Source: a virus
Lineage: Duplodnaviria > Caudoviricetes
IMG/VR virus record: IMGVR_UViG_3300047557_002530
Length of the DNA: 64,000 bases
Strand: one strand, 5' to 3'
The notes below the pieces were generated by a model. The model did no database searches, was not told the DNA's origin, and saw only the letters and a program-made list of their open reading frames with translations. This document shows, in pieces, positions 26,117 through 52,492 of this stretch; the first letter of the stretch is position 1; each line of letters starts with the position of its first letter. The translations under genes were made by a program, and so were the position numbers.

Positions 26117-26208
26117 TACAATAATCATATGAGCAGTGAGGGTCCAAACCTCATATAAGTCTCACCCCTCCTATGCCTCTCATAGAAGCACAAACCAGGA
26201 GGTCTCTT

Positions 26209-26282
26209 GTCTCAGTAGCTCAGTTGGATAGAGCATCTGCCTTCTAAGCAGTTGGTCGGGGGTTCGAGTCCCTCCTGAGACG
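26209..26282 (+). tRNA. trnR: tRNA-Arg(UCU)
   Basis: Cloverleaf, loop CTTCTAA. Confidence 0.93.
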
Positions 26283-26711
26283 TTGACTTTTTTCTTAAAA
26301 AGTTTTATAAATAAAACACTTAGGTCGAAAACAATGTCTTACCAAATGCCCACCAAACAGATTAGTAACCTTGATTGCCGTGATTGGCATATTGAGGGTA
26401 CTCCCCTGTTTGCGGATATGGAAAGACATATGTAAGATGTAATCCATAAAAGCAAATAGAGGGGAGAGAAACCAAAAGTTTCCTCCCCTTTTTTGTTGCT
26501 TGGACCACTTTCCTAAGTGTCCACCAATCTCCCCACAGAGGACAAAATGGTAGTATATTACATGAGTCGGTGGGGGAACGAGACCCCAAACTGCCAAGTC
26601 CACTTTCGGAACTGGCACAAACCACTTTCCCCTCACTAGGTTCTGTGGTATTCTTAAAGGGTGGTTGAGAGACCACCAGCACCTTGACAACTCAATATTT
26701 ACCACATTATT

Positions 26712-26783
26712 GGGACATTAACTCAGCGGTAGAGTATTCGGCTTTTAACCGATTAGTCCTCGGTTCGAATCCGAGATGTCCCA
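26712..26783 (+). tRNA. trnK: tRNA-Lys(UUU)
   Basis: Cloverleaf, loop CTTTTAA. Confidence 0.93.
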
Positions 26784-26787
26784 CCTT

Positions 26788-26859
26788 GACTCTATAGTGA
26801 AGTGGTTATCACGCTACCCTGTCACGGTAGTATCACGGGTTCAAATCCCGTTAGAGTCG
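26788..26859 (+). tRNA. trnD: tRNA-Asp(GUC)
   Basis: Cloverleaf, loop CTGTCAC. Confidence 0.93.
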
Positions 26860-26907
26860 TTGCTGATTTGCGCTGGATCTGATAATCCAGAATGCCGTCA
26901 GCATTAA

Positions 26908-26982
26908 GGTCCTATCGACTAGCGGTTAGGTCATCACCCTTTCAAGGTGACGGCACGGGTTCGAATCCCGTTAGGACTACCA
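26908..26982 (+). tRNA. trnE: tRNA-Glu(UUC)
   Basis: Cloverleaf, loop CTTTCAA, encoded CCA. Confidence 0.93.
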
Positions 26983-27056
26983 CGGAATGTAGCTCAGTTT
27001 GGTAGAGCACTCGCTTTGGGAGCGAGATGTCGCAGGTTCGAATCCTGTCATTCCGA
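26983..27056 (+). tRNA. trnP: tRNA-Pro(UGG)
   Basis: Cloverleaf, loop TTTGGGA. Confidence 0.93.
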
Positions 27057-27057
27057 C

Positions 27058-27139
27058 TTGGAAATGTGTGGAGCACAGGGGAGTGGAGAGTTGATCGACT
27101 CTACTGCCTGACAGGTTCGATTCCTGAATTTCCAAACCA
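27058..27139 (+). ncRNA. tRNA-like RNA without canonical D/anticodon arms
   Basis: 8-bp acceptor TTGGAAAT/ATTTCCAA, T-arm CAGG-TTCGATT-CCTG, ends ACCA; long central hairpin. Confidence 0.6.
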
Positions 27140-27141
27140 AA

Positions 27142-27214
27142 CGGGGAGTAGCTCAGTTGGTAGAGCACATGCCTGAAGAGCATGGTGTCGGTGGTTCAAT
27201 TCCACCCTCTTCGA
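27142..27214 (+). tRNA. trnF: tRNA-Phe(GAA)
   Basis: Cloverleaf, loop CTGAAGA. Confidence 0.9.
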
Positions 27215-27217
27215 CTT

Positions 27218-27307
27218 GGGAAAGCACCTTGGTTGGTGAGCACGACGGTGTTAGAGACGGTTCGATTCCGTCCTTTGGCAATGGTGGTTCAAATCCACCT
27301 TTTCCCA
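27218..27307 (+). ncRNA. tRNA-like RNA with two T-arms
   Basis: Acceptor GGGAAAG/TTTTCCC; T-arms GACGG-TTCGATT-CCGTC and GGTGG-TTCAAAT-CCACC. Confidence 0.65.
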
Positions 27308-27311
27308 CAAC

Positions 27312-27383
27312 GGAACCGTAGCTCAGTGGTAGAGCACTCGGCTGATAACCGAGCGGTCACAAGTTCAAATCTTGTCGGTTCCA
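27312..27383 (+). tRNA. trnI: tRNA-Ile(GAU)
   Basis: Cloverleaf, loop CTGATAA. Confidence 0.93.
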
Positions 27384-27387
27384 CCTT

Positions 27388-27476
27388 GGAAGTGTGGCAG
27401 AGAGGTCTAATGCAGTGGATTGCTAATCCGCCGATGTCTTTATAGGCATCCGTTGGTTCGAATCCAACCACTTCCG
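27388..27476 (+). tRNA. trnS: tRNA-Ser(GCU)
   Basis: Loop TTGCTAA, long variable arm. Confidence 0.92.
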
Positions 27477-27479
27477 TTT

Positions 27480-27553
27480 GGCAGTATAGCTCAGTCTGGC
27501 AGAGCACGGGTCTCATATGCCTATGGTCGATAGTTCAAATCTATCTACTGCCT
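27480..27553 (+). tRNA. tRNA(CAU), Met or Ile2
   Basis: Cloverleaf, loop CTCATAT; weak anticodon stem; not an initiator. Confidence 0.75.
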
Positions 27554-27554
27554 T

Positions 27555-27625
27555 GTGTCGTTAGCCTAGTGGTAAGGCATCGGTTTGTGGAACCGACTAG
27601 ATGGGTTCAATTCCCATACGGCACC
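27555..27625 (+). tRNA. trnH: tRNA-His(GUG)
   Basis: Loop TTGTGGA, C discriminator. Confidence 0.9.
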
Positions 27626-27627
27626 CC

Positions 27628-27699
27628 GCCCTTATAGTTCAGTGATAGAACGCATTCTTGGTAAGAATGAGGCCGTGAGTTTGATTCTCACTAAGGGCT
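27628..27699 (+). tRNA. trnT: tRNA-Thr(GGU)
   Basis: Loop TTGGTAA; T-loop reads TTTGATT. Confidence 0.85.
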
Positions 27700-27773
27700 T
27701 GAGAAATCGTCTAATGGTAGGACACCTCCCTTTGAAGGAGTTTATCTAGGTTCGAGTCCTAGTTTCTCAGCCA
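27700..27773 (+). tRNA. trnQ: tRNA-Gln(UUG)
   Basis: Loop CTTTGAA, encoded CCA. Confidence 0.9.
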
Positions 27774-27848
27774 GTTGGGTTAGTCTAATGGTAAGATGCA
27801 GGTCTCCAAAACCTTGCGATGGGGGTTCAAATCCCTCACCCTTCGCCA
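27774..27848 (+). tRNA. trnW: tRNA-Trp(CCA)
   Basis: Loop CTCCAAA, encoded CCA, two acceptor mismatches. Confidence 0.85.
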
Positions 27849-27851
27849 AAT

Positions 27852-27923
27852 ACCCTGGTAACTCAGTGGAAGAGTGCTTCGCTACGAACGAAGAAGACGG
27901 TGGTTCAAATCCCCCTCAGGGTG
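27852..27923 (+). tRNA. trnR: tRNA-Arg(ACG)
   Basis: Cloverleaf, loop CTACGAA. Confidence 0.88.
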
Positions 27924-27924
27924 C

Positions 27925-27953
27925 TTGACAAATCTAAAAGGATTTGCTACTAT
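27925..27953 (+). promoter_or_regulatory. Sigma70-type promoter for the tmRNA
   Basis: TTGACA-N17-TACTAT. Confidence 0.75.
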
Positions 27954-27960
27954 ATACAAT

Positions 27961-28197
27961 GTTCAAGAGGATGCAAAGTCTGTTGCTTCGGACTGGGGTT
28001 CGATTCCCCACACTTCCATTTCGAGGGGGTGCATTGGTTTCGACGGGGTGGTAAGGTTGTATCTGTTGACGGAACAAACAAACAAACGCAAACAACATTG
28101 TTGCATTCTCTCGCAGTAATACTACTGCCCTTGTTTAGAGGGACGGGGTGATAACGGCCCTGTAAAGAAAGCGTTACGGGCAGTGAAATGCTGCCTT
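27961..28197 (+). ncRNA. ssrA: Circularly permuted (two-piece) tmRNA; tag ANNIVAFSRSNTTALV at 28088-28138
   Basis: T-arm and acceptor 3' strand (GGGGTTCGATTCCCCACACTTCCA, ends 28018) precede the 5' strand GGGGGTGCATTGGTTTCGAC (28025); G3:U70; resume codon GCA; ends approximate. Confidence 0.88.
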
Positions 28198-28198
28198 T

Positions 28199-28272
28199 GT
28201 CTGGTTGATGGAACTGGTATACATACTTGCCTTAGAAGCAAGGTTTTGCAGGTTCGAATCCTGTACCGGACA
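28199..28272 (+). tRNA. trnL: tRNA-Leu(UAG), short variable loop
   Basis: Loop CTTAGAA; 5-nt variable region. Confidence 0.85.
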
Positions 28273-28312
28273 CTTGACAATCAAACTTAAATAGTTTATG
28301 ATTGTCTTATAA

Positions 28313-28383
28313 GCGGGTATGGTGTAGCGGTAACACGCCATCCTTCCAAGTTGGAATCACCGGTTCGAACCCGGTTACCCGCT
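28313..28383 (+). tRNA. trnG: tRNA-Gly(UCC)
   Basis: Cloverleaf, loop CTTCCAA. Confidence 0.92.
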
Positions 28384-28385
28384 TT

Positions 28386-28457
28386 CCTCTGGTAGTCTAT
28401 TGGTAAGGACAGGCAGACAATGCACTTGGAAACTGGGTTCGATTCCCAGACAGAGGT
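28386..28457 (+). ncRNA. tRNA-like RNA or pseudo-tRNA with degenerate anticodon arm
   Basis: Normal acceptor, D and T arms; anticodon region GGCAGACAATGCAC cannot form a 5-bp stem with 7-nt loop. Confidence 0.6.
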
Positions 28458-28464
28458 AACTTTA

Positions 28465-28584
28465 TCCCAGTGACGCCGTTGGTAACGGTCATGTGGTCGG
28501 GTGGTGCCCCCGCATTCCAGAAGGGAGTTAATCTCCTGAGGTAGGTGACTAAAAAACTTAAGGTTCGAATCCTTATACTGGGAC
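28465..28584 (+). ncRNA. tRNA-like RNA with branched expansion in place of the anticodon loop
   Basis: Acceptor TCCCAGT/ACTGGGA, D-arm GCCG/CGGT, T-arm TAAGG-TTCGAAT-CCTTA, about 65 nt between D and T arms. Confidence 0.62.
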
Positions 28585-28590
28585 AAACAT

Positions 28591-28662
28591 TCCACAATAG
28601 CTCAGCGGTAGAGTCGGTGACTGTTAATCACTTGGTCCCTGGTTCGAATCCAGGTTGTGGAG
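28591..28662 (+). tRNA. trnN: tRNA-Asn(GUU)
   Basis: Cloverleaf, loop CTGTTAA. Confidence 0.93.
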
Positions 28663-28664
28663 TT

Positions 28665-28861
28665 GAAAGGGCACAAGTTCTTTCAAATTGAGAATGCTAA
28701 ACAAACTTCGGAGGTAAAATCTCTAGAGTCTCCCAACCCATTTGGTGTGTTCCTGAGAACAGGAAGAATAAGGTTCGGTGTTTTCTCTTATTCACTGCCC
28801 TCTAATGCAGTGAAAATTGCGTCAAGTGTCTGGCGCTGGTGATGGACATTCATCACCTTTC
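28665..28861 (+). ncRNA. Highly structured ~200-nt ncRNA, candidate manA-type RNA motif
   Basis: Outer stem GAAAGG/CCTTTC; hairpins TTCCTG/CAGGAA, AATAAG/CTTATT, CACTGC/GCAGTG, GGTGATG/CATCACC; between tRNA-Asn and tRNA-Val; family call from size and context only. Confidence 0.55.
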
Positions 28862-28933
28862 GGGCGATTAACTCAGCGGTAGAGTGCCTCCTTTACACGG
28901 AGTAGGTCGGCGGTTCGAATCCGTCATCGCCCA
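28862..28933 (+). tRNA. trnV: tRNA-Val(UAC)
   Basis: Cloverleaf, loop TTTACAC. Confidence 0.93.
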
Positions 28934-28961
28934 CTTGATAAATAAAAGTAAAAAGAGTATA

Positions 28962-29396
28962 ATGGAAAAACTTTATAAACTATTGAGTGATGCTCAGTCA
29001 TCGCTTTTTGTTTTATTCCATAAAACTTGGGCATTTCATTGGAATGTCGTAGGTGAAGACTTTACTCAACTCCACCAACTCTTTGGTGGTCAGTATGAGA
29101 CTATGTTTGAAGAGATTGATCGTCTCTCAGAACATATGCGTTATCTGAATGTAAAACCTCTCAGTTCTCTCTCTAGAATGCTTGAGGTAACTCAGATTAA
29201 AGAAGCAGCAAGTTCAACTGGGGCAAAAGAAATGCTTCAAGAACTTCTTGATAATAACACCAAGTTTTGTGAGTTAATGGCAGAGATTTCAGAAGAATCT
29301 GAAAATCAAAAGTCATATGCTACGGCAAATTTAGTTCAAGATTTAATGGAATCTCATGGTAAATTTGTTTGGCAGTTAAGAGCACATTTACAATGA
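28962..29396 (+). CDS. dps: Dps / ferritin-like DNA-protection protein
   Basis: FHWNVVGEDFTQLHQLF...EEIDRLSEHMR; ATG at 28962. Confidence 0.9.
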   Translation: MEKLYKLLSDAQSSLFVLFHKTWAFHWNVVGEDFTQLHQLFGGQYETMFEEIDRLSEHMRYLNVKPLSSLSRMLEVTQIKEAASSTGAKEMLQELLDNNTKFCELMAEISEESENQKSYATANLVQDLMESHGKFVWQLRAHLQ

Positions 29397-29411
29397 ATAG
29401 GATGAAAAATA

Positions 29412-29663
29412 ATGATTTCAATAAGATGCAAAGATTGCAATAGAGAATTATCAGGTCATTTATCAAAAACAGTGACTTGTGGTTGCCCTAATATGGCAAC
29501 GATTCGTGGAGATAAGATTTCAGCACTTGACTTATCTCGTATTATTATGCTAAACTCTTTAAAAGAAAATTCAAAAACAAACGTTTTAACCTCCCAAGAT
29601 ATTGCTTGGCAGGAAGCACGTAGACAACGTAAAGTTCGTCGTTTGGATTTTGAGGTTCGCTGA
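29412..29663 (+). CDS. Small Cys-motif hypothetical protein
   Basis: CKDC...CGCPN. Confidence 0.65.
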   Translation: MISIRCKDCNRELSGHLSKTVTCGCPNMATIRGDKISALDLSRIIMLNSLKENSKTNVLTSQDIAWQEARRQRKVRRLDFEVR

Positions 29664-29673
29664 ACCTCCTATT

Positions 29674-29759
29674 GGAAGCGTGGCCGAGTGGTTTATGGCA
29701 GTTGTCTTGAAAACAACCAACGTTAATAGCGTTCGTGGGTTCAAATCCTACCGCTTCCG
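29674..29759 (+). tRNA. trnS: tRNA-Ser(UGA)
   Basis: Loop CTTGAAA, long variable arm. Confidence 0.92.
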
Positions 29760-29872
29760 TTAAGTTAAGTTACAAATTTAACAATTTCTTCAACAGTGTT
29801 AAGATATCAACACAAAAAGTTGACTGCGAAATACCTGTGATTAGTATATAGTAGTATCACGGGGACGAACCG

Positions 29873-30022
29873 ATGGATCAACACACCTACGATAATTGGG
29901 TGAAGATCAAAGCAACTTTTGAATCTTCTGGGAACACAGATAATATGTTCTACAAAAGAGCAGTTGAAATCGTAAAAACCCGAAGAGACCCTCTTGCAAA
30001 ATTTCTTGGCGATGAAAAATGA
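29873..30022 (+). CDS. Small hypothetical protein
   Basis: MDQHTYDNWVKIKATFESSGNTDNMFYKRA; overlaps the next start. Confidence 0.55.
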   Translation: MDQHTYDNWVKIKATFESSGNTDNMFYKRAVEIVKTRRDPLAKFLGDEK

Positions 30023-30222
30023 TGCACGAACAAGAAGAATTTATCACACGTTCTGAAGTTCAGGAGATGATTGATGCTGCTATCAGAAGACACAACCGTA
30101 ATGCTTCTATCATTAGTATGTGCGTCGGTTGGGTGGTTCTTGCTTTATTTGCTGAGGGACTTTTAAGATTGGTTGGAGTTATTCCACCTTTACTTCCATT
30201 TCTTAAAATTACTTTAAACTAA
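30019..30222 (+). CDS. Small membrane protein
   Basis: EVQEMIDAAIRRHNRN followed by a hydrophobic helix. Confidence 0.65.
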   Translation: MMHEQEEFITRSEVQEMIDAAIRRHNRNASIISMCVGWVVLALFAEGLLRLVGVIPPLLPFLKITLN

Positions 30223-30330
30223 TGGTAACAATCACAGAAGAAGATTTGCATAAATTAAACCAAAGAGTTCTCCAGCAGAAAATGGATGAACTCTTTGAAG
30301 AACCATCTACTTACGAGGATGAAGAAGATG

Positions 30331-30426
30331 ATGATTAGAACAATAATATCAGCAGTTCTTCTTTTTTCCTCCATTGGTCTTTTTATACATTGGGGACTTA
30401 CACACGCATATCCAGAGGTTTTATGA
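30331..30426 (+). CDS. NdhQ-like single-helix protein (NDH-1 subunit candidate)
   Basis: MIRTIISAVLLFSSIGLFIHWGLTHAYPEVL resembles the cyanobacterial NdhQ core (ISAVL...IxWxLxxAY) as recalled; ATGA overlap with gnd. Confidence 0.5.
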   Translation: MIRTIISAVLLFSSIGLFIHWGLTHAYPEVL

Positions 30427-31457
30427 AGGTAGGATTAATTGGTCTTGGTAGAATGGGCGAAGGAATGTCTCGCCGTATGATGAAAGCAGGTATTGAAGTA
30501 TGGGGTTATCGAAGAAATTATGAAAAGGCACAGGAGGCATTTGAAAAGGGATTTGTTAATGGAATTACAACAGATATCGAAAACCTTGTTAAAGTAGTTA
30601 AACAAAATAATAAAGGTAGAACACAACCAGGCATCTTTCAAATGGTTGTTCCTGCCGAAACAGTAGAGGAAACAATCAATGAGTTACTACGATATTGTAG
30701 TGAAGGAGATATTATTATTGATCATGGCAATAGCAATTTTAAAGACAGTCGGAAAAGAGCAGAACGCTTGGCAAAATTTGGTATCCAATATATTGATTGT
30801 GGCACTAGCGGCGGTGTTTATGGTTTGGATCGTGGATACTGTCTTATGGTTGGTGGCGGAAATACTGCGGTCGCCACTTGTTCGCGCATTTTTGATGCCC
30901 TTGCCCCAGGAATCATCGCTGCCCCAAGGACTCAATTTGACTCGGATGTAACTTCTGCTGAGTTTGGATGGTTGCATTGTGGTGGTCCTGGTGCAGGGCA
31001 CTTTGTGAAGATGGTGCATAATGGTATTGAGTATGGAATAATGCAGGCATATGCAGAAGGATTCAATATCCTAAAGAACGCTAATAATGGAGCACAGTAT
31101 GTCAAAGAAGGTGATGCTGAGGTCGCTCCAATGGCAGATCCAGAATCCTATTGTTATGATATTGATGTTGCTGAGGTTGCTGAGTTATGGCGTCGTGGTA
31201 GCGTGGTTGGTAGTTGGTTACTCGATCTTACTGCTGATGTGCTACGCAGGGATGGTAGCCTTAAACAATTCTCTGGGGGAGTATCCGATAGCGGTGAGGG
31301 TCGTTGGACTGTTTCTGCCGCTGTGGACCTGGGGGTTCCCGCTCCTGTTATTACTACGGCACTATTTGAAAGATTTAACTCACGCAATCTCGGATCATTC
31401 GGAGCAAAAATCTTGAATGGTATGCGTTATATGTTTGGGGGACATCATGTTAGGTAA
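30423..31457 (+). CDS. gnd: 6-phosphogluconate dehydrogenase (decarboxylating, short form)
   Basis: GLIGLGRMG, DCGTSGG, GHFVKMVHNGIEY, VSDSGEGRW. Confidence 0.96.
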   Translation: MKVGLIGLGRMGEGMSRRMMKAGIEVWGYRRNYEKAQEAFEKGFVNGITTDIENLVKVVKQNNKGRTQPGIFQMVVPAETVEETINELLRYCSEGDIIIDHGNSNFKDSRKRAERLAKFGIQYIDCGTSGGVYGLDRGYCLMVGGGNTAVATCSRIFDALAPGIIAAPRTQFDSDVTSAEFGWLHCGGPGAGHFVKMVHNGIEYGIMQAYAEGFNILKNANNGAQYVKEGDAEVAPMADPESYCYDIDVAEVAELWRRGSVVGSWLLDLTADVLRRDGSLKQFSGGVSDSGEGRWTVSAAVDLGVPAPVITTALFERFNSRNLGSFGAKILNGMRYMFGGHHVR

Positions 31458-31566
31458 AGCACTTTTATTTGTTGCTATTCCTTTTGTACTGACTACACTG
31501 TATTTCGGAACACGAGGAGGGTACTATGATTCCGAAGACTATAAGGGAAATGGAACCGCACATTAA
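31447..31566 (+). CDS. ndhP: NDH-1L subunit NdhP
   Basis: MLGKALLFVAIPFVLTTLYFGTRGGYYDSEDYKGNGTAH: TM helix plus FGTRxGxYDxxxYxGNGxAH signature. Confidence 0.85.
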   Translation: MLGKALLFVAIPFVLTTLYFGTRGGYYDSEDYKGNGTAH

Positions 31567-31749
31567 GCAGAAATATTGGTTTGCAATGTCTGCTTTTTCA
31601 AGAATGTATGGAGTAAAGACTGCTGCTAATGATATACATATTAAACAGTTCTGTATTGAATGGTCGTATTGGGACATTCAATCCCCTTTACAGGGGCTTG
31701 ACGAAGTGGACCAATACATGTATTATGAATACAAGAACTGGAGAGGAAG

Positions 31750-31866
31750 ATGATTTTCCACTTAGTTGAAACACTAGCAGCAAGTCCTTTCTTTCTTTTT
31801 CTATGTGGATGTGGATTGACAATTGTACCATTTGCTGGTATTATGTTTATACACAGAAACAAATAA
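31750..31866 (+). CDS. Small membrane protein
   Basis: MIFHLVETLAASPFFLFLCGCGLTIVPFAGIMFIHRNK. Confidence 0.5.
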   Translation: MIFHLVETLAASPFFLFLCGCGLTIVPFAGIMFIHRNK

Positions 31867-31938
31867 CGGGGTGTAAGTCAGCGGTAGACGGCTTGCTTTG
31901 GGAGCAAGAAGACACTGGTTCGATCCCAGTCACCCCGA
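31867..31938 (+). tRNA. trnP: tRNA-Pro(UGG), second copy
   Basis: Cloverleaf, loop TTTGGGA. Confidence 0.9.
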
Positions 31939-31954
31939 TCATAAAACTCACTTT

Positions 31955-32185
31955 ATGAAAATGTATCCAGAACTTTCAGATCTCCAAAAATTTACAGTTC
32001 AAGAGTTTCAAGAAAATTTTGATAATCTAATACAAAGAGTAGAAAATGGTGAATCATTTATTATTACTGATGGGGAAAGAAACGCAGTGATAGTTCCATA
32101 CAACGAAACTATAAAGTTTGCAGTAGAATCTAATGTGGATGACGATGTGATACGAATACACACCGACCACGAAGAAGGTTCTTGA
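31955..32185 (+). CDS. Phd/YefM-like antitoxin-fold protein (orphan)
   Basis: FTVQEFQENFDNLIQRVENGESFIITDGERNAVIVP. Confidence 0.6.
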   Translation: MKMYPELSDLQKFTVQEFQENFDNLIQRVENGESFIITDGERNAVIVPYNETIKFAVESNVDDDVIRIHTDHEEGS

Positions 32186-32223
32186 CATAGAGTTCCAGGT
32201 CCTCTACAATAGATCTGGTTCAA

Positions 32224-32311
32224 GCGAGTGAGACTTGGTAGTCAGAGGAGTCTTATAAACTCTTTCCGCCAGATTAGCGGCTTTGAGGTGGTTCGAATCC
32301 ACCCACTCGTA
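32224..32311 (+). tRNA. Atypical tRNA with UAU anticodon and long variable arm
   Basis: Acceptor GCGAGTG/CACTCGT, loop CTTATAA, variable hairpin CCGC/GCGG, compact D-arm. Confidence 0.65.
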
Positions 32312-32315
32312 CCTT

Positions 32316-32388
32316 GCTCCTTTAGCAATCTGGTGAATGCAGCGAACTCATAATTCGCCTGAGGCGTGTTCGATCCACGCAAGGAGCA
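32316..32388 (+). tRNA. tRNA(CAU), Met or Ile2
   Basis: Cloverleaf, loop CTCATAA. Confidence 0.85.
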
Positions 32389-32441
32389 CTTGACAGAACC
32401 CCTGTCAAACCCTTATAATACTAAGGTCAACATTCAAAACA

Positions 32442-49109: not shown

Positions 49110-49634
49110 ATGGTAGGTATAAAAATGAGAAATAAAACTTTTAATATTGGCGATAAAGTATGGATGCTGACTATTGTTGGGCATTCTTTATTAGAACAAA
49201 ATAATGGAAGAAAAAGAAATTACTATCAATGTAAATGTGATTGTGGAAGTGAAAAAATAGTTTACGTTGAATCTTACAAACTAAAAAGTGGGAGATTTAA
49301 ATCTTGTGGATGTAAAAGAGCATCCACTGGTGGCATATCTAACACTAAAAAGTATAGAATGTGGAAATCTGCACAAGAGCGTGCTATTAAAAAAGGATTA
49401 GAATTTTCTATACGAGTGGAAGATATTGAAATACCAAAAACTTGCCCTTTATTGAACATAACACTCATCGAAGGTGATAGAGAATGTACTCCTTCACTTG
49501 ATAGAATTGATAGTAAAAAAGGATATACTCCAGACAATGTGTGGGTTATATCTCATAGAGCAAATCAAATAAAAAATGATGCTACACTTGAAGAATTAAA
49601 ACTCATAACAGAAAACCTATCAAAAATAACTTGA
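49110..49634 (+). CDS. HNH homing endonuclease
   Basis: CDC...SCGC; SLDRIDSKKGY...NVWVISHRAN..KND; TATAAATA at 49092. Confidence 0.85.
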   Translation: MVGIKMRNKTFNIGDKVWMLTIVGHSLLEQNNGRKRNYYQCKCDCGSEKIVYVESYKLKSGRFKSCGCKRASTGGISNTKKYRMWKSAQERAIKKGLEFSIRVEDIEIPKTCPLLNITLIEGDRECTPSLDRIDSKKGYTPDNVWVISHRANQIKNDATLEELKLITENLSKIT

Positions 49635-51005: not shown

Positions 51006-51069
51006 AGAATACTCAAAGCGTCCGAAAGGGCGCTTTTTTAATAAATAAAATATCGAATGAGTAGGAAAG

Positions 51070-51759
51070 ATGAGAGTAGATCTTCATAACTTTTTTCAAT
51101 ATTATGATCCAAAGAATCCTAAGCACGTTGCAGCAGTTGAGCAACTAGAAGTAGATCTTAAGGATTCTCCACTTCTTGACGATAGTTCTAATTGGGTCAA
51201 AATTTACAGGACAAAACCAACTGTTCCTGGTGTTCTATCTGTTCCTTTTTATCCACAGACAGATAATTACAGAGATGCGCAAAGAACTTGCAATTCATCT
51301 GCTTGTGCTATGTGCTTAGAGTATTTCAAACCAGGCACTCTCCAAGGAGCAAAGGGCGATGATGCCTACGTTCGAAAAGTTTTTGCGATTGGTGATTCAA
51401 CTGATCACACCGTCCAGACAAAAGTTTTGGAAGGTTATGGAATTAAGTCACGCTTTAGTTACAATTTATCTTTTTCTGATCTTGATCGTGAGTTATCTGC
51501 TGGGAGACCTGTCGTTATTGGTATCTTGCACCGCGGCTCTTTATCTAATCCTACTGGTGGGCACATGGTTGTAGTGATTGGTAAGAGAGGTGAGGATTAT
51601 GTTGTGAATGATCCCTATGGTTCTCTCAATGATGGTTACACTGGACCTGTAACAAATGGTAAGGGTGCAGTCTATAAGAAGTCTGATCTTACTTATCGTT
51701 GGTTAGAAAGAGGTAAAGATAAGACTGGTTGGGGTCGTATCTTTGACGCAAAAAAGTAG
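51070..51759 (+). CDS. Peptidase C39-like domain protein (putative peptidoglycan hydrolase)
   Basis: Q...RTCNSSAC, GGHMVVVIG, VNDPYG triad-like motifs. Confidence 0.75.
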   Translation: MRVDLHNFFQYYDPKNPKHVAAVEQLEVDLKDSPLLDDSSNWVKIYRTKPTVPGVLSVPFYPQTDNYRDAQRTCNSSACAMCLEYFKPGTLQGAKGDDAYVRKVFAIGDSTDHTVQTKVLEGYGIKSRFSYNLSFSDLDRELSAGRPVVIGILHRGSLSNPTGGHMVVVIGKRGEDYVVNDPYGSLNDGYTGPVTNGKGAVYKKSDLTYRWLERGKDKTGWGRIFDAKK

Positions 51760-51806
51760 AAACGCCAACTAACATTAATAATGCCAATGAAGTGCCGTTG
51801 GTTGGC
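51750..51806 (+). promoter_or_regulatory. Putative -1 programmed ribosomal frameshift signal
   Basis: A_AAA_AAG at 51750-51756, 7-nt spacer, 10-bp stem 51764-51773/51797-51806; -1 frame open into the lysozyme. Confidence 0.7.
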
Positions 51807-52250
51807 ATTAATTTAATTAAAGAGTTTGAAGGATGTCATTTGAATGCTTATCCAGATCCTTTAACAAAAGGACCACCTATTACAATAGGTTGGGGAAGCA
51901 CTAAAGACTTTGACGGAACACCATTTAAAATAGGTAGAGTGATTACTCAAAAGTATGCAGACACTCTACTTGAGTTTGATTTAAAGAATAGATTTTTACC
52001 AGCACTTCAAAGAATACCTTATTGGAGCGAAATGAATGAAAATCAACAAGGCACAATTCTTAGCTTTGCTTATAATCTTGGTGCTAATTTTTATGGAAGC
52101 TCTAATTTTAATACGATAACTAGAGTTCTTAAAAACAAAGAATGGACTAAAGTACCTGATGCCTTATATCTTTATCATAACCCAGGAACAAGTGTAGAAG
52201 CAGGATTGAAGAGGAGGAGAGTTGCAGAAGGTAAACTTTGGAGTTCTTAA
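51792..52250 (+). CDS. GH24 lysozyme domain (probably a frameshift extension of the upstream ORF)
   Basis: IKEFEGCHLNAYPDP...TIGWGST...SFAYNLG...GLKRRRVAE; frame open from 51747; no clear RBS. Confidence 0.88.
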   Translation: MPLVGINLIKEFEGCHLNAYPDPLTKGPPITIGWGSTKDFDGTPFKIGRVITQKYADTLLEFDLKNRFLPALQRIPYWSEMNENQQGTILSFAYNLGANFYGSSNFNTITRVLKNKEWTKVPDALYLYHNPGTSVEAGLKRRRVAEGKLWSS

Positions 52251-52492
52251 TCGTCCATCTTTGCTTTTAATCCAAGCAATGCCGTAAACAAAGTAAACAA
52301 AGCATCATATCCTCTTCTTTCAGATTCTTTGCAATCTAAGGGAGGGGAATTTTTTAATCCACCTAGTGCATCTGCTCTTTCCATAGAACCTGGAACCATA
52401 AAGTTACAGTTGGCAAAAGTAACACCAACGTATCCAAGTGTTCCTACTACAATAACGACGATTAACTTATCAATTAGTTTTAAGTTTTTCAT
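52247..52492 (-). CDS. Small membrane protein
   Basis: N-terminal TM helix; CNF...DC; C-terminal hydrophobic segment. Confidence 0.55.
   Translation of the reverse strand: MKNLKLIDKLIVVIVVGTLGYVGVTFANCNFMVPGSMERADALGGLKNSPPLDCKESERRGYDALFTLFTALLGLKAKMDD

Follow-up and report, generated by a model that had tools for sequence, protein, structure and literature searches.

The 64,000-nucleotide (nt) stretch of DNA analysed here, IMG/VR virus record IMGVR_UViG_3300047557_002530 (referred to below as the window), comes from a freshwater T4-like, Kyanoviridae-like cyanomyovirus whose DNA is only ~70% identical to that of its nearest isolates, S-SRM01 and S-PM2. At positions 51070–52250 it carries a locus that, judged from sequence comparison, very probably encodes a two-enzyme cell-wall hydrolase made through programmed −1 ribosomal frameshifting. 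The open reading frame (ORF) of a C39-like cysteine peptidase ends there in GAC GCA AAA AAG TAG, a GH24 lysozyme lies downstream in the −1 frame, and in this phage and in many relatives including S-PM2 that lysozyme frame is most likely reached only by a slip back of one base. The initial annotation of this DNA had proposed such a frameshift fusion, and the proposal is now supported by conservation, by covariation of a downstream stem, by the finding that most relatives lack a lysozyme start, and by natural in-frame fusions of the same two domains. The elements of the locus are the following:

51070–51759, + strand: zero-frame ORF of 229 amino acids (aa), a ~50-aa N-terminal module followed by a papain-like C39-type cysteine peptidase
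51744–51746, + strand: TGA in the −1 frame, 4 nt upstream of the heptamer, the upstream limit for a shift that could yield the fusion
51750–51756, + strand: slippery heptamer A_AAA_AAG, aligned with the zero frame as X_XXY_YYZ
51757–51759, + strand: zero-frame stop TAG, adjoining the 3' end of the heptamer
51756–52250, + strand: −1-frame coding part after the shift, the linker VETPTNINNANEVPLVG and then the GH24 lysozyme (164 codons plus a TAA stop)
51764–51806, + strand: candidate frameshift-stimulating stem-loop, 5' arm GCCAACTAAC (51764–51773), 23-nt loop, 3' arm GTTGGTTGGC (51797–51806)
51779–51810, + strand: alternative hairpin that shares this 3' arm and pairs it with 51779–51788 (minimum free energy −14.1 kcal/mol)
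51792–51800, + strand: GTG (51792) and TTG (51798), possible internal start codons of the lysozyme frame, within the loop or 3' arm of the stem and without a Shine-Dalgarno-like sequence

The heptamer sits in register where the peptidase ORF ends, with the TAG directly after it, and the −1 frame is open from 51747 through the linker and lysozyme to the TAA at 52248–52250, so both of these earlier readings hold; the overlap with the zero frame is just 13 nt. The predicted products are the 229-aa peptidase and a 229 + 164 = 393-aa peptidase–lysozyme, whose trans-frame junction would read ...IFDAKK/VETPT.... The linker between the two domains is rich in Ser, Thr, Asn and Pro, and the −1-frame peptide that lies 5' of any start is VETPTNINNANEVPLVGINLIK in the window and VTSSTSR in S-PM2. 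Chance could account for the heptamer by itself (below) but not for its placement, the stem and the comparative data.

The stem begins 7 nt past the heptamer and contains 10 bp, nine Watson-Crick pairs and one G·U pair. It is the centroid structure of the region, with an energy of −13.7 kcal/mol and z = −2.6 relative to shuffled sequences, and the 10-bp stem described originally is thus confirmed. Several ACCAAC/GCCAAT repeats in the linker complement the 3' arm. In the loop linker (51764–51796 in the window, and the junctions of loci L016, L048 and L073) such repeats encode a T/N/A-rich peptide; they are longer by 12–21 nt in relatives, and every copy pairs with the 3' arm to give multiple alternative 5' arms. 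A consensus scan flagged 51791–51809 as terminator-like, but this was ruled out by its weak tail and by the stems of relatives, which have no T-run.

The comparison covered 6 isolate loci and 80 IMG/VR loci related through the peptidase, to which 4 further isolate loci, and 25 IMG/VR loci around phage S-CAM7, were added. Among the 83 loci of the first set that have both domains, one downstream of the other, 67 have an in-register A_AAA_AAG where the peptidase ORF ends; each of these has its lysozyme in the −1 frame and a zero-frame stop either right after the heptamer or one codon further on. That stop varies among TAG, TAA and TGA, and the codon 5' of AAA AAG is GCA, GTA, ATA or ACA, which specify four different amino acids and always have A in the third position. 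The frame overlap is 13 nt in most of the 67 loci, and the shift is therefore pinned to the heptamer. Overall the heptamer is kept in register in 73 related loci (S-PM2, S-SRM01 and IMG/VR contigs) whose peptidases are 53–100% identical, which answers favourably the question of conservation in homologous cyanophage loci that the initial annotation had raised.

The distribution of possible lysozyme starts agrees with this pattern. In 48 of the 67 heptamer loci the stretch from the last −1-frame stop to the catalytic EFEG motif has no ATG, GTG or TTG, and a lysozyme ATG is present in all 16 loci that do not have the heptamer. In S-PM2 the first possible start would eliminate the catalytic Glu, and a full-length lysozyme ORF is kept in every one of the 65 heptamer loci that are not cut by a contig end. 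In S-SRM01 the lysozyme has an ATG that overlaps the peptidase stop (ATGA), in addition to the heptamer. For the window, a GTG without a clear ribosome-binding site had been called the only lysozyme start; the absence of a Shine-Dalgarno-like sequence stands, but the GTG is not the only candidate, as TTG 51798 is in frame 6 nt later. This GTG/TTG pair is confined to the window's own stem family. A sub-group within the A_AAA_AAG clade (L017, L022, L043, L045, L074–L077, L079–L082 and L086) has lost both heptamer and stem, and there a 204–205-aa lysozyme with a distinct ~45-aa N-terminal extension (MTIKFIDAVKNHKDLPHQNDAW...) begins at an ATGA overlap.

Stems were compared after dereplication of the junctions, which left 37 distinct ones with the heptamer and 11 without it. 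A stem of 8–13 bp (bulged in one case) is present in 36 of the 37 heptamer junctions, 0–11 nt and mostly 4–8 nt downstream of the heptamer; the sole exception is S-SRM01, whose lysozyme owns an ATG. The best downstream hairpin averages −13.8 kcal/mol in these 37 junctions and −0.6 kcal/mol in the 11 heptamer-less ones, although the minimum-free-energy hairpin is not a clean control for the in-frame fusions, which have a higher GC content and irregular folds that average −9.6 kcal/mol. As a replacement we measured the longest uninterrupted helix that begins 3–9 nt downstream:

Heptamer loci: median helix 10 bp, range 6–13 bp
Loci with an ATGA overlap or separate genes: median helix 5 bp
Natural in-frame fusions: median helix 4 bp
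Shuffled sequences: median helix 6 bp, with 9 bp reached in 3.5%

Relatives without the heptamer, whether they have an ATGA overlap, separate genes or an in-frame fusion, are thus also without the stem, and locus L084 is low on this measure only because its 13-bp stem is bulged.

The stem has been kept in spite of extensive change in its sequence. At least 10 different stem sequences in differing registers are present, for example AGTTCTACTCC/GGAGTAGAACT, AGCTCTACT/AGTAGAGCT (S-PM2), CAACATCACA/TGTGGTGTTG, CGACATCACA/TGTGGTGTCG and CCCACTAC/GTAGTGGG. RNAalifold analysis of three stem families found compensatory changes in 3 of 11, 2 of 9 and, in the family of the window, 1 of 10 pairs, with few broken pairs. 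The covariation that had been suggested as a check is therefore present, both as compensatory changes and as complete sequence replacement. The 3' arm lies in the codons right before the conserved LIKEFEG and the 5' arm in the variable linker, so the linker appears to evolve in such a way that it stays complementary to the 3' arm.

The peptidase and lysozyme also occur as one ~405-aa ORF in phage ACG-2014f and in the IMG/VR loci L093–L101, and S-CREM1 has an in-frame fusion with the reverse domain order. The predicted trans-frame junction ...GWGRIFDAKKVE... (IFDAKKVE) has a homologue in the in-frame junction ...GWGRIFDAKVEE... (IFDAKVEE), and natural in-frame fusions with such a junction show the fused protein to be a genuine form under selection. 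At this junction the in-frame fusions use GCG, GCC or GCT and AAA, AAG, GAA or ACG freely, whereas the split loci have a fixed NNA AAA AAG. The more distant cyanomyoviruses S-B68 (L089 1495–2793) and S-N03 (L090 1483–2751) encode in-frame proteins of 422–432 aa in which the peptidase is joined to another C-terminal domain, in which tblastn found no GH24; in S-B68 the N-terminal module is in the middle of the protein.

A second slippery site is present in S-CAM7 and two IMG/VR relatives, in which the peptidase ORF ends in GTT TTT TTT CCA CAG TAG and so contains U_UUU_UUU in register. In this clade the −1 frame is open, the lysozyme has no start, and an 8-bp stem of its own (GTAGAACC/GGTTCTAC) lies 5 nt downstream. 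In a maximum-likelihood tree of the peptidase domain, which is rooted by midpoint only, the S-CAM7 clade (support 100/100) is nested inside the clade of in-frame fusions (100/100), and the A_AAA_AAG loci are the other large clade, with the ATGA-type loci nested among them. Since the S-CAM7 clade is nested among in-frame fusions, recoding in the peptidase–lysozyme gene probably arose at least twice.

The two enzymatic assignments of the initial annotation are borne out by profile searches. The peptidase matches Pfam Peptidase_C39_2 (PF13529; E = 5e-12, 47 bits against a cut-off of 24), and its Q63, C74 (51289–51291), H165 (51562–51564) and D181 (51610–51612), a Gln/Cys/His/Asp catalytic set, are invariant in an alignment of 40 sequences. 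An AlphaFold model has a papain-like fold with a predicted local distance difference test (pLDDT) score of 92.7. Sequence search found no solved relative; the structural neighbours were found by fold search and are the Bacillus C39-like peptidase 3erv, the peptidase domains of PCAT1 and ComA, the glutathione-cleaving Alr0975 of Nostoc and the pseudomurein endoisopeptidase PeiR. In distant members of the peptidase clade the fusion partner is GH24 (on either side), GH108 plus PG_binding_3, or GH73, and because such fusions recur we infer that the peptidase cleaves peptidoglycan peptides. The lysozyme matches Pfam Phage_lysozyme (PF00959, GH24; E = 3e-20, 73 bits against a cut-off of 22) and has the EFEG...DP...TIGWG motifs, with the catalytic Glu of FEG at 51828–51830; its relatives in the PDB are 9kbq, 6et6 and 2anv (P22 lysozyme), with E-values of 4e-15 to 1e-9. 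It is the single PF00959 match in a complete 222-kb relative genome.

The first ~50 aa of the peptidase protein (51070–51225 in the window; DLHNFF.YYD..NP.H..A...L....W..IYR) form a separate module. The stand-alone 222–224-aa lysozymes of DSL-LC03 and DSL-LC02 (L005 2274–2942 and L003 2686–3357) carry a copy of this module themselves (48% identity, E = 2e-16), and in S-CREM1 the module is between lysozyme and peptidase. This module may be what the lysozyme gains through fusion. BLASTP found no similarity between the N-terminal extension of the ATGA-type lysozymes and the module of the peptidase, and we therefore do not claim that every free lysozyme carries it.

The surroundings of the locus may be relevant to its transcription and translation, and two features lie just upstream:

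51018–51039, + strand: GCGTCC-GAAA-GGGCGC hairpin with a T6 tail, terminator-like, closing the upstream peroxiredoxin-like gene (read by eye, and missed by the consensus scan)
51041–51047, + strand: ATAAATA, resembling a T4 late promoter, 22 nt 5' of the peptidase ATG

The motif scan of the window found no ATAAATA between the peptidase and lysozyme ORFs; the + strand carries 28 of the window's 30 copies, several of them just 5' of ORF starts, and from what is known of T4-like phages we take this motif to be a late promoter. The window has 23 tRNA genes at 26208–32389, which include a tRNA-Lys(UUU) (26712–26785) that decodes both heptamer codons; there is no tRNA-Lys(CUU) among the 23. ARAGORN also called a permuted "tmRNA*" at 27929–28229, which overlaps a tRNA-Leu and may be a false call.

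If the locus works by programmed frameshifting, events would proceed as follows. The two frames would be carried by a single, probably late, transcription unit, and most ribosomes would stop at TAG 51757 to make the 229-aa protein with the N-terminal module and peptidase. Some ribosomes would pause on A_AAA_AAG with the stem-loop, 7 nt downstream, at the mRNA entrance, and both tRNA-Lys would re-pair one base back, a tandem −1 slippage stimulated by the proximal stem; translation would then continue in the −1 frame via the linker into the GH24 lysozyme to give the 393-aa fusion. The product would presumably be an endolysin rather than a virion-borne lysin.

Could the locus instead be two independent genes? 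The lysozyme would then start itself, from GTG 51792 or TTG 51798 in the window and from non-canonical codons or by termination-reinitiation in relatives, and the heptamer would merely be Ala-Lys-Lys codons. Gene callers everywhere give two ORFs, GTG or TTG candidates are found in the window and in 19 of the 67 heptamer loci, and S-SRM01 has an ATGA overlap as well as the heptamer, all of which fit this explanation. However, the 48 loci that have none of the three start codons before the catalytic Glu do not, and in the window both candidates are located within the stem-loop. Independent genes also leave unexplained the third-position A of the four preceding codons, against the free codon choice in the in-frame fusions, and the covarying stem at 4–8-nt spacing that is present only alongside the heptamer. 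We consider this explanation improbable; independent initiation is possible as an additional route in this window but cannot explain the family-wide pattern. A marginally less probable alternative is transcriptional slippage, in which RNA polymerase adds an A at the A6 run (or a U at the T8 run of S-CAM7) and produces a minority mRNA with a single fused ORF. The homopolymer runs do sit exactly within the frame-overlap window, and in bacterial insertion sequences and Thermus dnaX runs of about 8–9 or more are known to slip; the T8 of S-CAM7 nears such lengths, and slippage is possible for that clade. An A6 run is short for bacterial RNA polymerase slippage, however, and the stem would be untranscribed while the polymerase is on the run, so the strict co-occurrence of stem and heptamer fits ribosomes better. 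The final G of the heptamer and its codon register are also conserved. One RNA-library contig crosses the A run without an insertion or deletion, which is weak evidence since contigs drop minority variants; three RNA-library contigs (X15–X17) lie on parts of both ORFs, none spans the heptamer with at least 31 nt on both sides, and DNA carry-over is possible.

The A run could also have been misassembled or misread, or the gene recently inactivated, such that its true form is a single or a decaying ORF; this would agree with the known error-proneness of homopolymers and with the in-frame fusions of other phages. The A6G-plus-stop arrangement is nonetheless found in the 73 loci from many independent assemblies and isolate genomes, and the lysozyme ORF is intact in all complete heptamer loci over the full range of peptidase divergence. 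Another study yielded a 1259-nt DNA contig that spans 51531–52300 without a gap, and an identical IMG/VR contig extends across the junction. Thus the miscounted A that had been named as a possible pitfall is not seen in data from another study and the A6 stands; as far as sequence data reach, error or pseudogene is refuted, and we give it next to no probability.

Several observations do weigh against programmed frameshifting at this locus. The alternative hairpin (above) is of equal energy, begins 22 nt past the heptamer and competes with the proximal stem; it is itself too far from the heptamer to stimulate a shift. In-register A_AAA_AAG is not avoided in the other ORFs of the window (6 in-register copies in the window's ORFs, compared to ~8.5 expected from codon usage), and the heptamer alone may therefore shift little in the host. 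The GTG and TTG candidates mean that some independent initiation of a 152-aa lysozyme is possible in the window, as in the other loci that have them. S-SRM01 retains the heptamer without the stem, so conservation of the heptamer may in part reflect ancestry or the AKK peptide. Finally, the loci share ancestry and their counts overstate the independent support; the independent units are the distinct stem families and the S-CAM7 clade.

The proposed signal has well-known counterparts. E. coli dnaX (tau/gamma) and orfAB of the IS3 family (IS911, IS150) have A_AAA_AAG with a simple stem-loop 5–8 nt downstream and make two products per mRNA, and the present locus is like these cassettes in its in-register heptamer, its simple downstream stem-loop and its two predicted products. 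It is unlike dnaX, where the shift truncates the protein, in that the shift would here extend the protein into a second enzyme, as in IS3 orfAB. dnaX also has an upstream Shine-Dalgarno-like stimulator; in the present locus a GGGG from the conserved GWG codons lies ~15 nt 5' of the heptamer, and it is found equally in non-shifting loci. The gene class differs as well, since dnaX and IS3 are replication or transposition genes and this is a lysin. Among tailed phages the tail assembly chaperones (lambda G/GT and analogues) have a conserved programmed −1 frameshift that yields a short and an extended product with a shared N-terminus. The locus would resemble them in all of these respects, but it differs in gene, function and genome position, both of its parts are enzymes, and its extended form is encoded in-frame in sister phages.

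Among lysins, the in-frame cyanophage proteins (ACG-2014f gp211, S-CREM1 gp9 and those of L093–L101) are homologous in peptidase, GH24 domain and junction; what sets them apart is that each is one ORF and has neither the heptamer nor a proximal stem (longest helix 4–6 bp). Gordonia actinobacteriophages have a split "lysin A" in which a protease C39 domain gene and a glycosyl hydrolase domain gene are adjacent ORFs (PMC12821328, PMC10868165). This is a matching pair of activities, but it is described as two gene products without recoding, and we liken it to the present locus by description only. We found no published report of frameshifting in a cyanophage lysin in the literature searched, which lacked most subscription journals and leaves such absence unproven. 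The mechanism itself is textbook; what is new, as far as we found, is the gene class, the breadth of its occurrence and the mis-annotation of S-PM2 and S-CAM7 (below).

A more speculative idea, which we regard as rather unlikely though less so than the alternatives above, is that the arrangement is a stoichiometry device of a heteromeric lysin: the peptidase and the fusion, which share an N-terminus, would assemble or act in a set ratio, that ratio would be tuned during infection by the phage tRNA-Lys(UUU), and in-frame fusions would have given rise to the device on two or more occasions, via different slippery sites. It can be likened to the multimeric endolysins of Gram-positive hosts, although those are built from internal starts.

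Other genes near the locus include psbA, petF, the peroxiredoxin gene and the 23-gene tRNA cluster. An 81-aa ORF at 52247–52492 (− strand), convergent with the lysozyme, is hydrophobic in an N-terminal segment and carries a conserved PPLDCKESERRGY motif, and homologues lie at the matching place in S-PM2 (L002 2669–3001) and S-SRM01; it may be a small, holin- or spanin-like membrane protein belonging to the lysis module. A 174-aa ORF at 49110–49634, just 5' of the ferredoxin gene, has HNH-endonuclease-like motifs (...DNVWVISHRANQIKND...) and is one of several endonuclease-type ORFs in the region.

In GenBank/RefSeq the "lysin" fragments of two isolates begin past the catalytic Glu, namely S-PM2p157 (L002 2454–2672, 72 aa, "putative lysin") and S-CAM7 gp246 (L088 2445–2717, 90 aa); in the RefSeq record of S-SRM01 both ORFs are named "endolysin", and a ribosomal_slippage join is absent from the records of all three phages. 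If programmed frameshifting operates at this locus, a lysis-type gene needs re-annotation in the model cyanophage S-PM2, in S-CAM7 and in metagenomic relatives that number in the hundreds, where the lysozyme now appears as a catalytically dead fragment or as startless. Such frameshifting would add a widespread, conserved −1 frameshift to the tail chaperone, capsid and transposase examples in phages. The loci would also form a natural series for the evolution of recoding (in-frame fusion, A_AAA_AAG plus stem, U_UUU_UUU plus stem, ATGA coupling and separate genes), and their more than 10 natural stem variants are ready for tests of frameshift stimulation in cyanobacteria, where recoding has been little studied.

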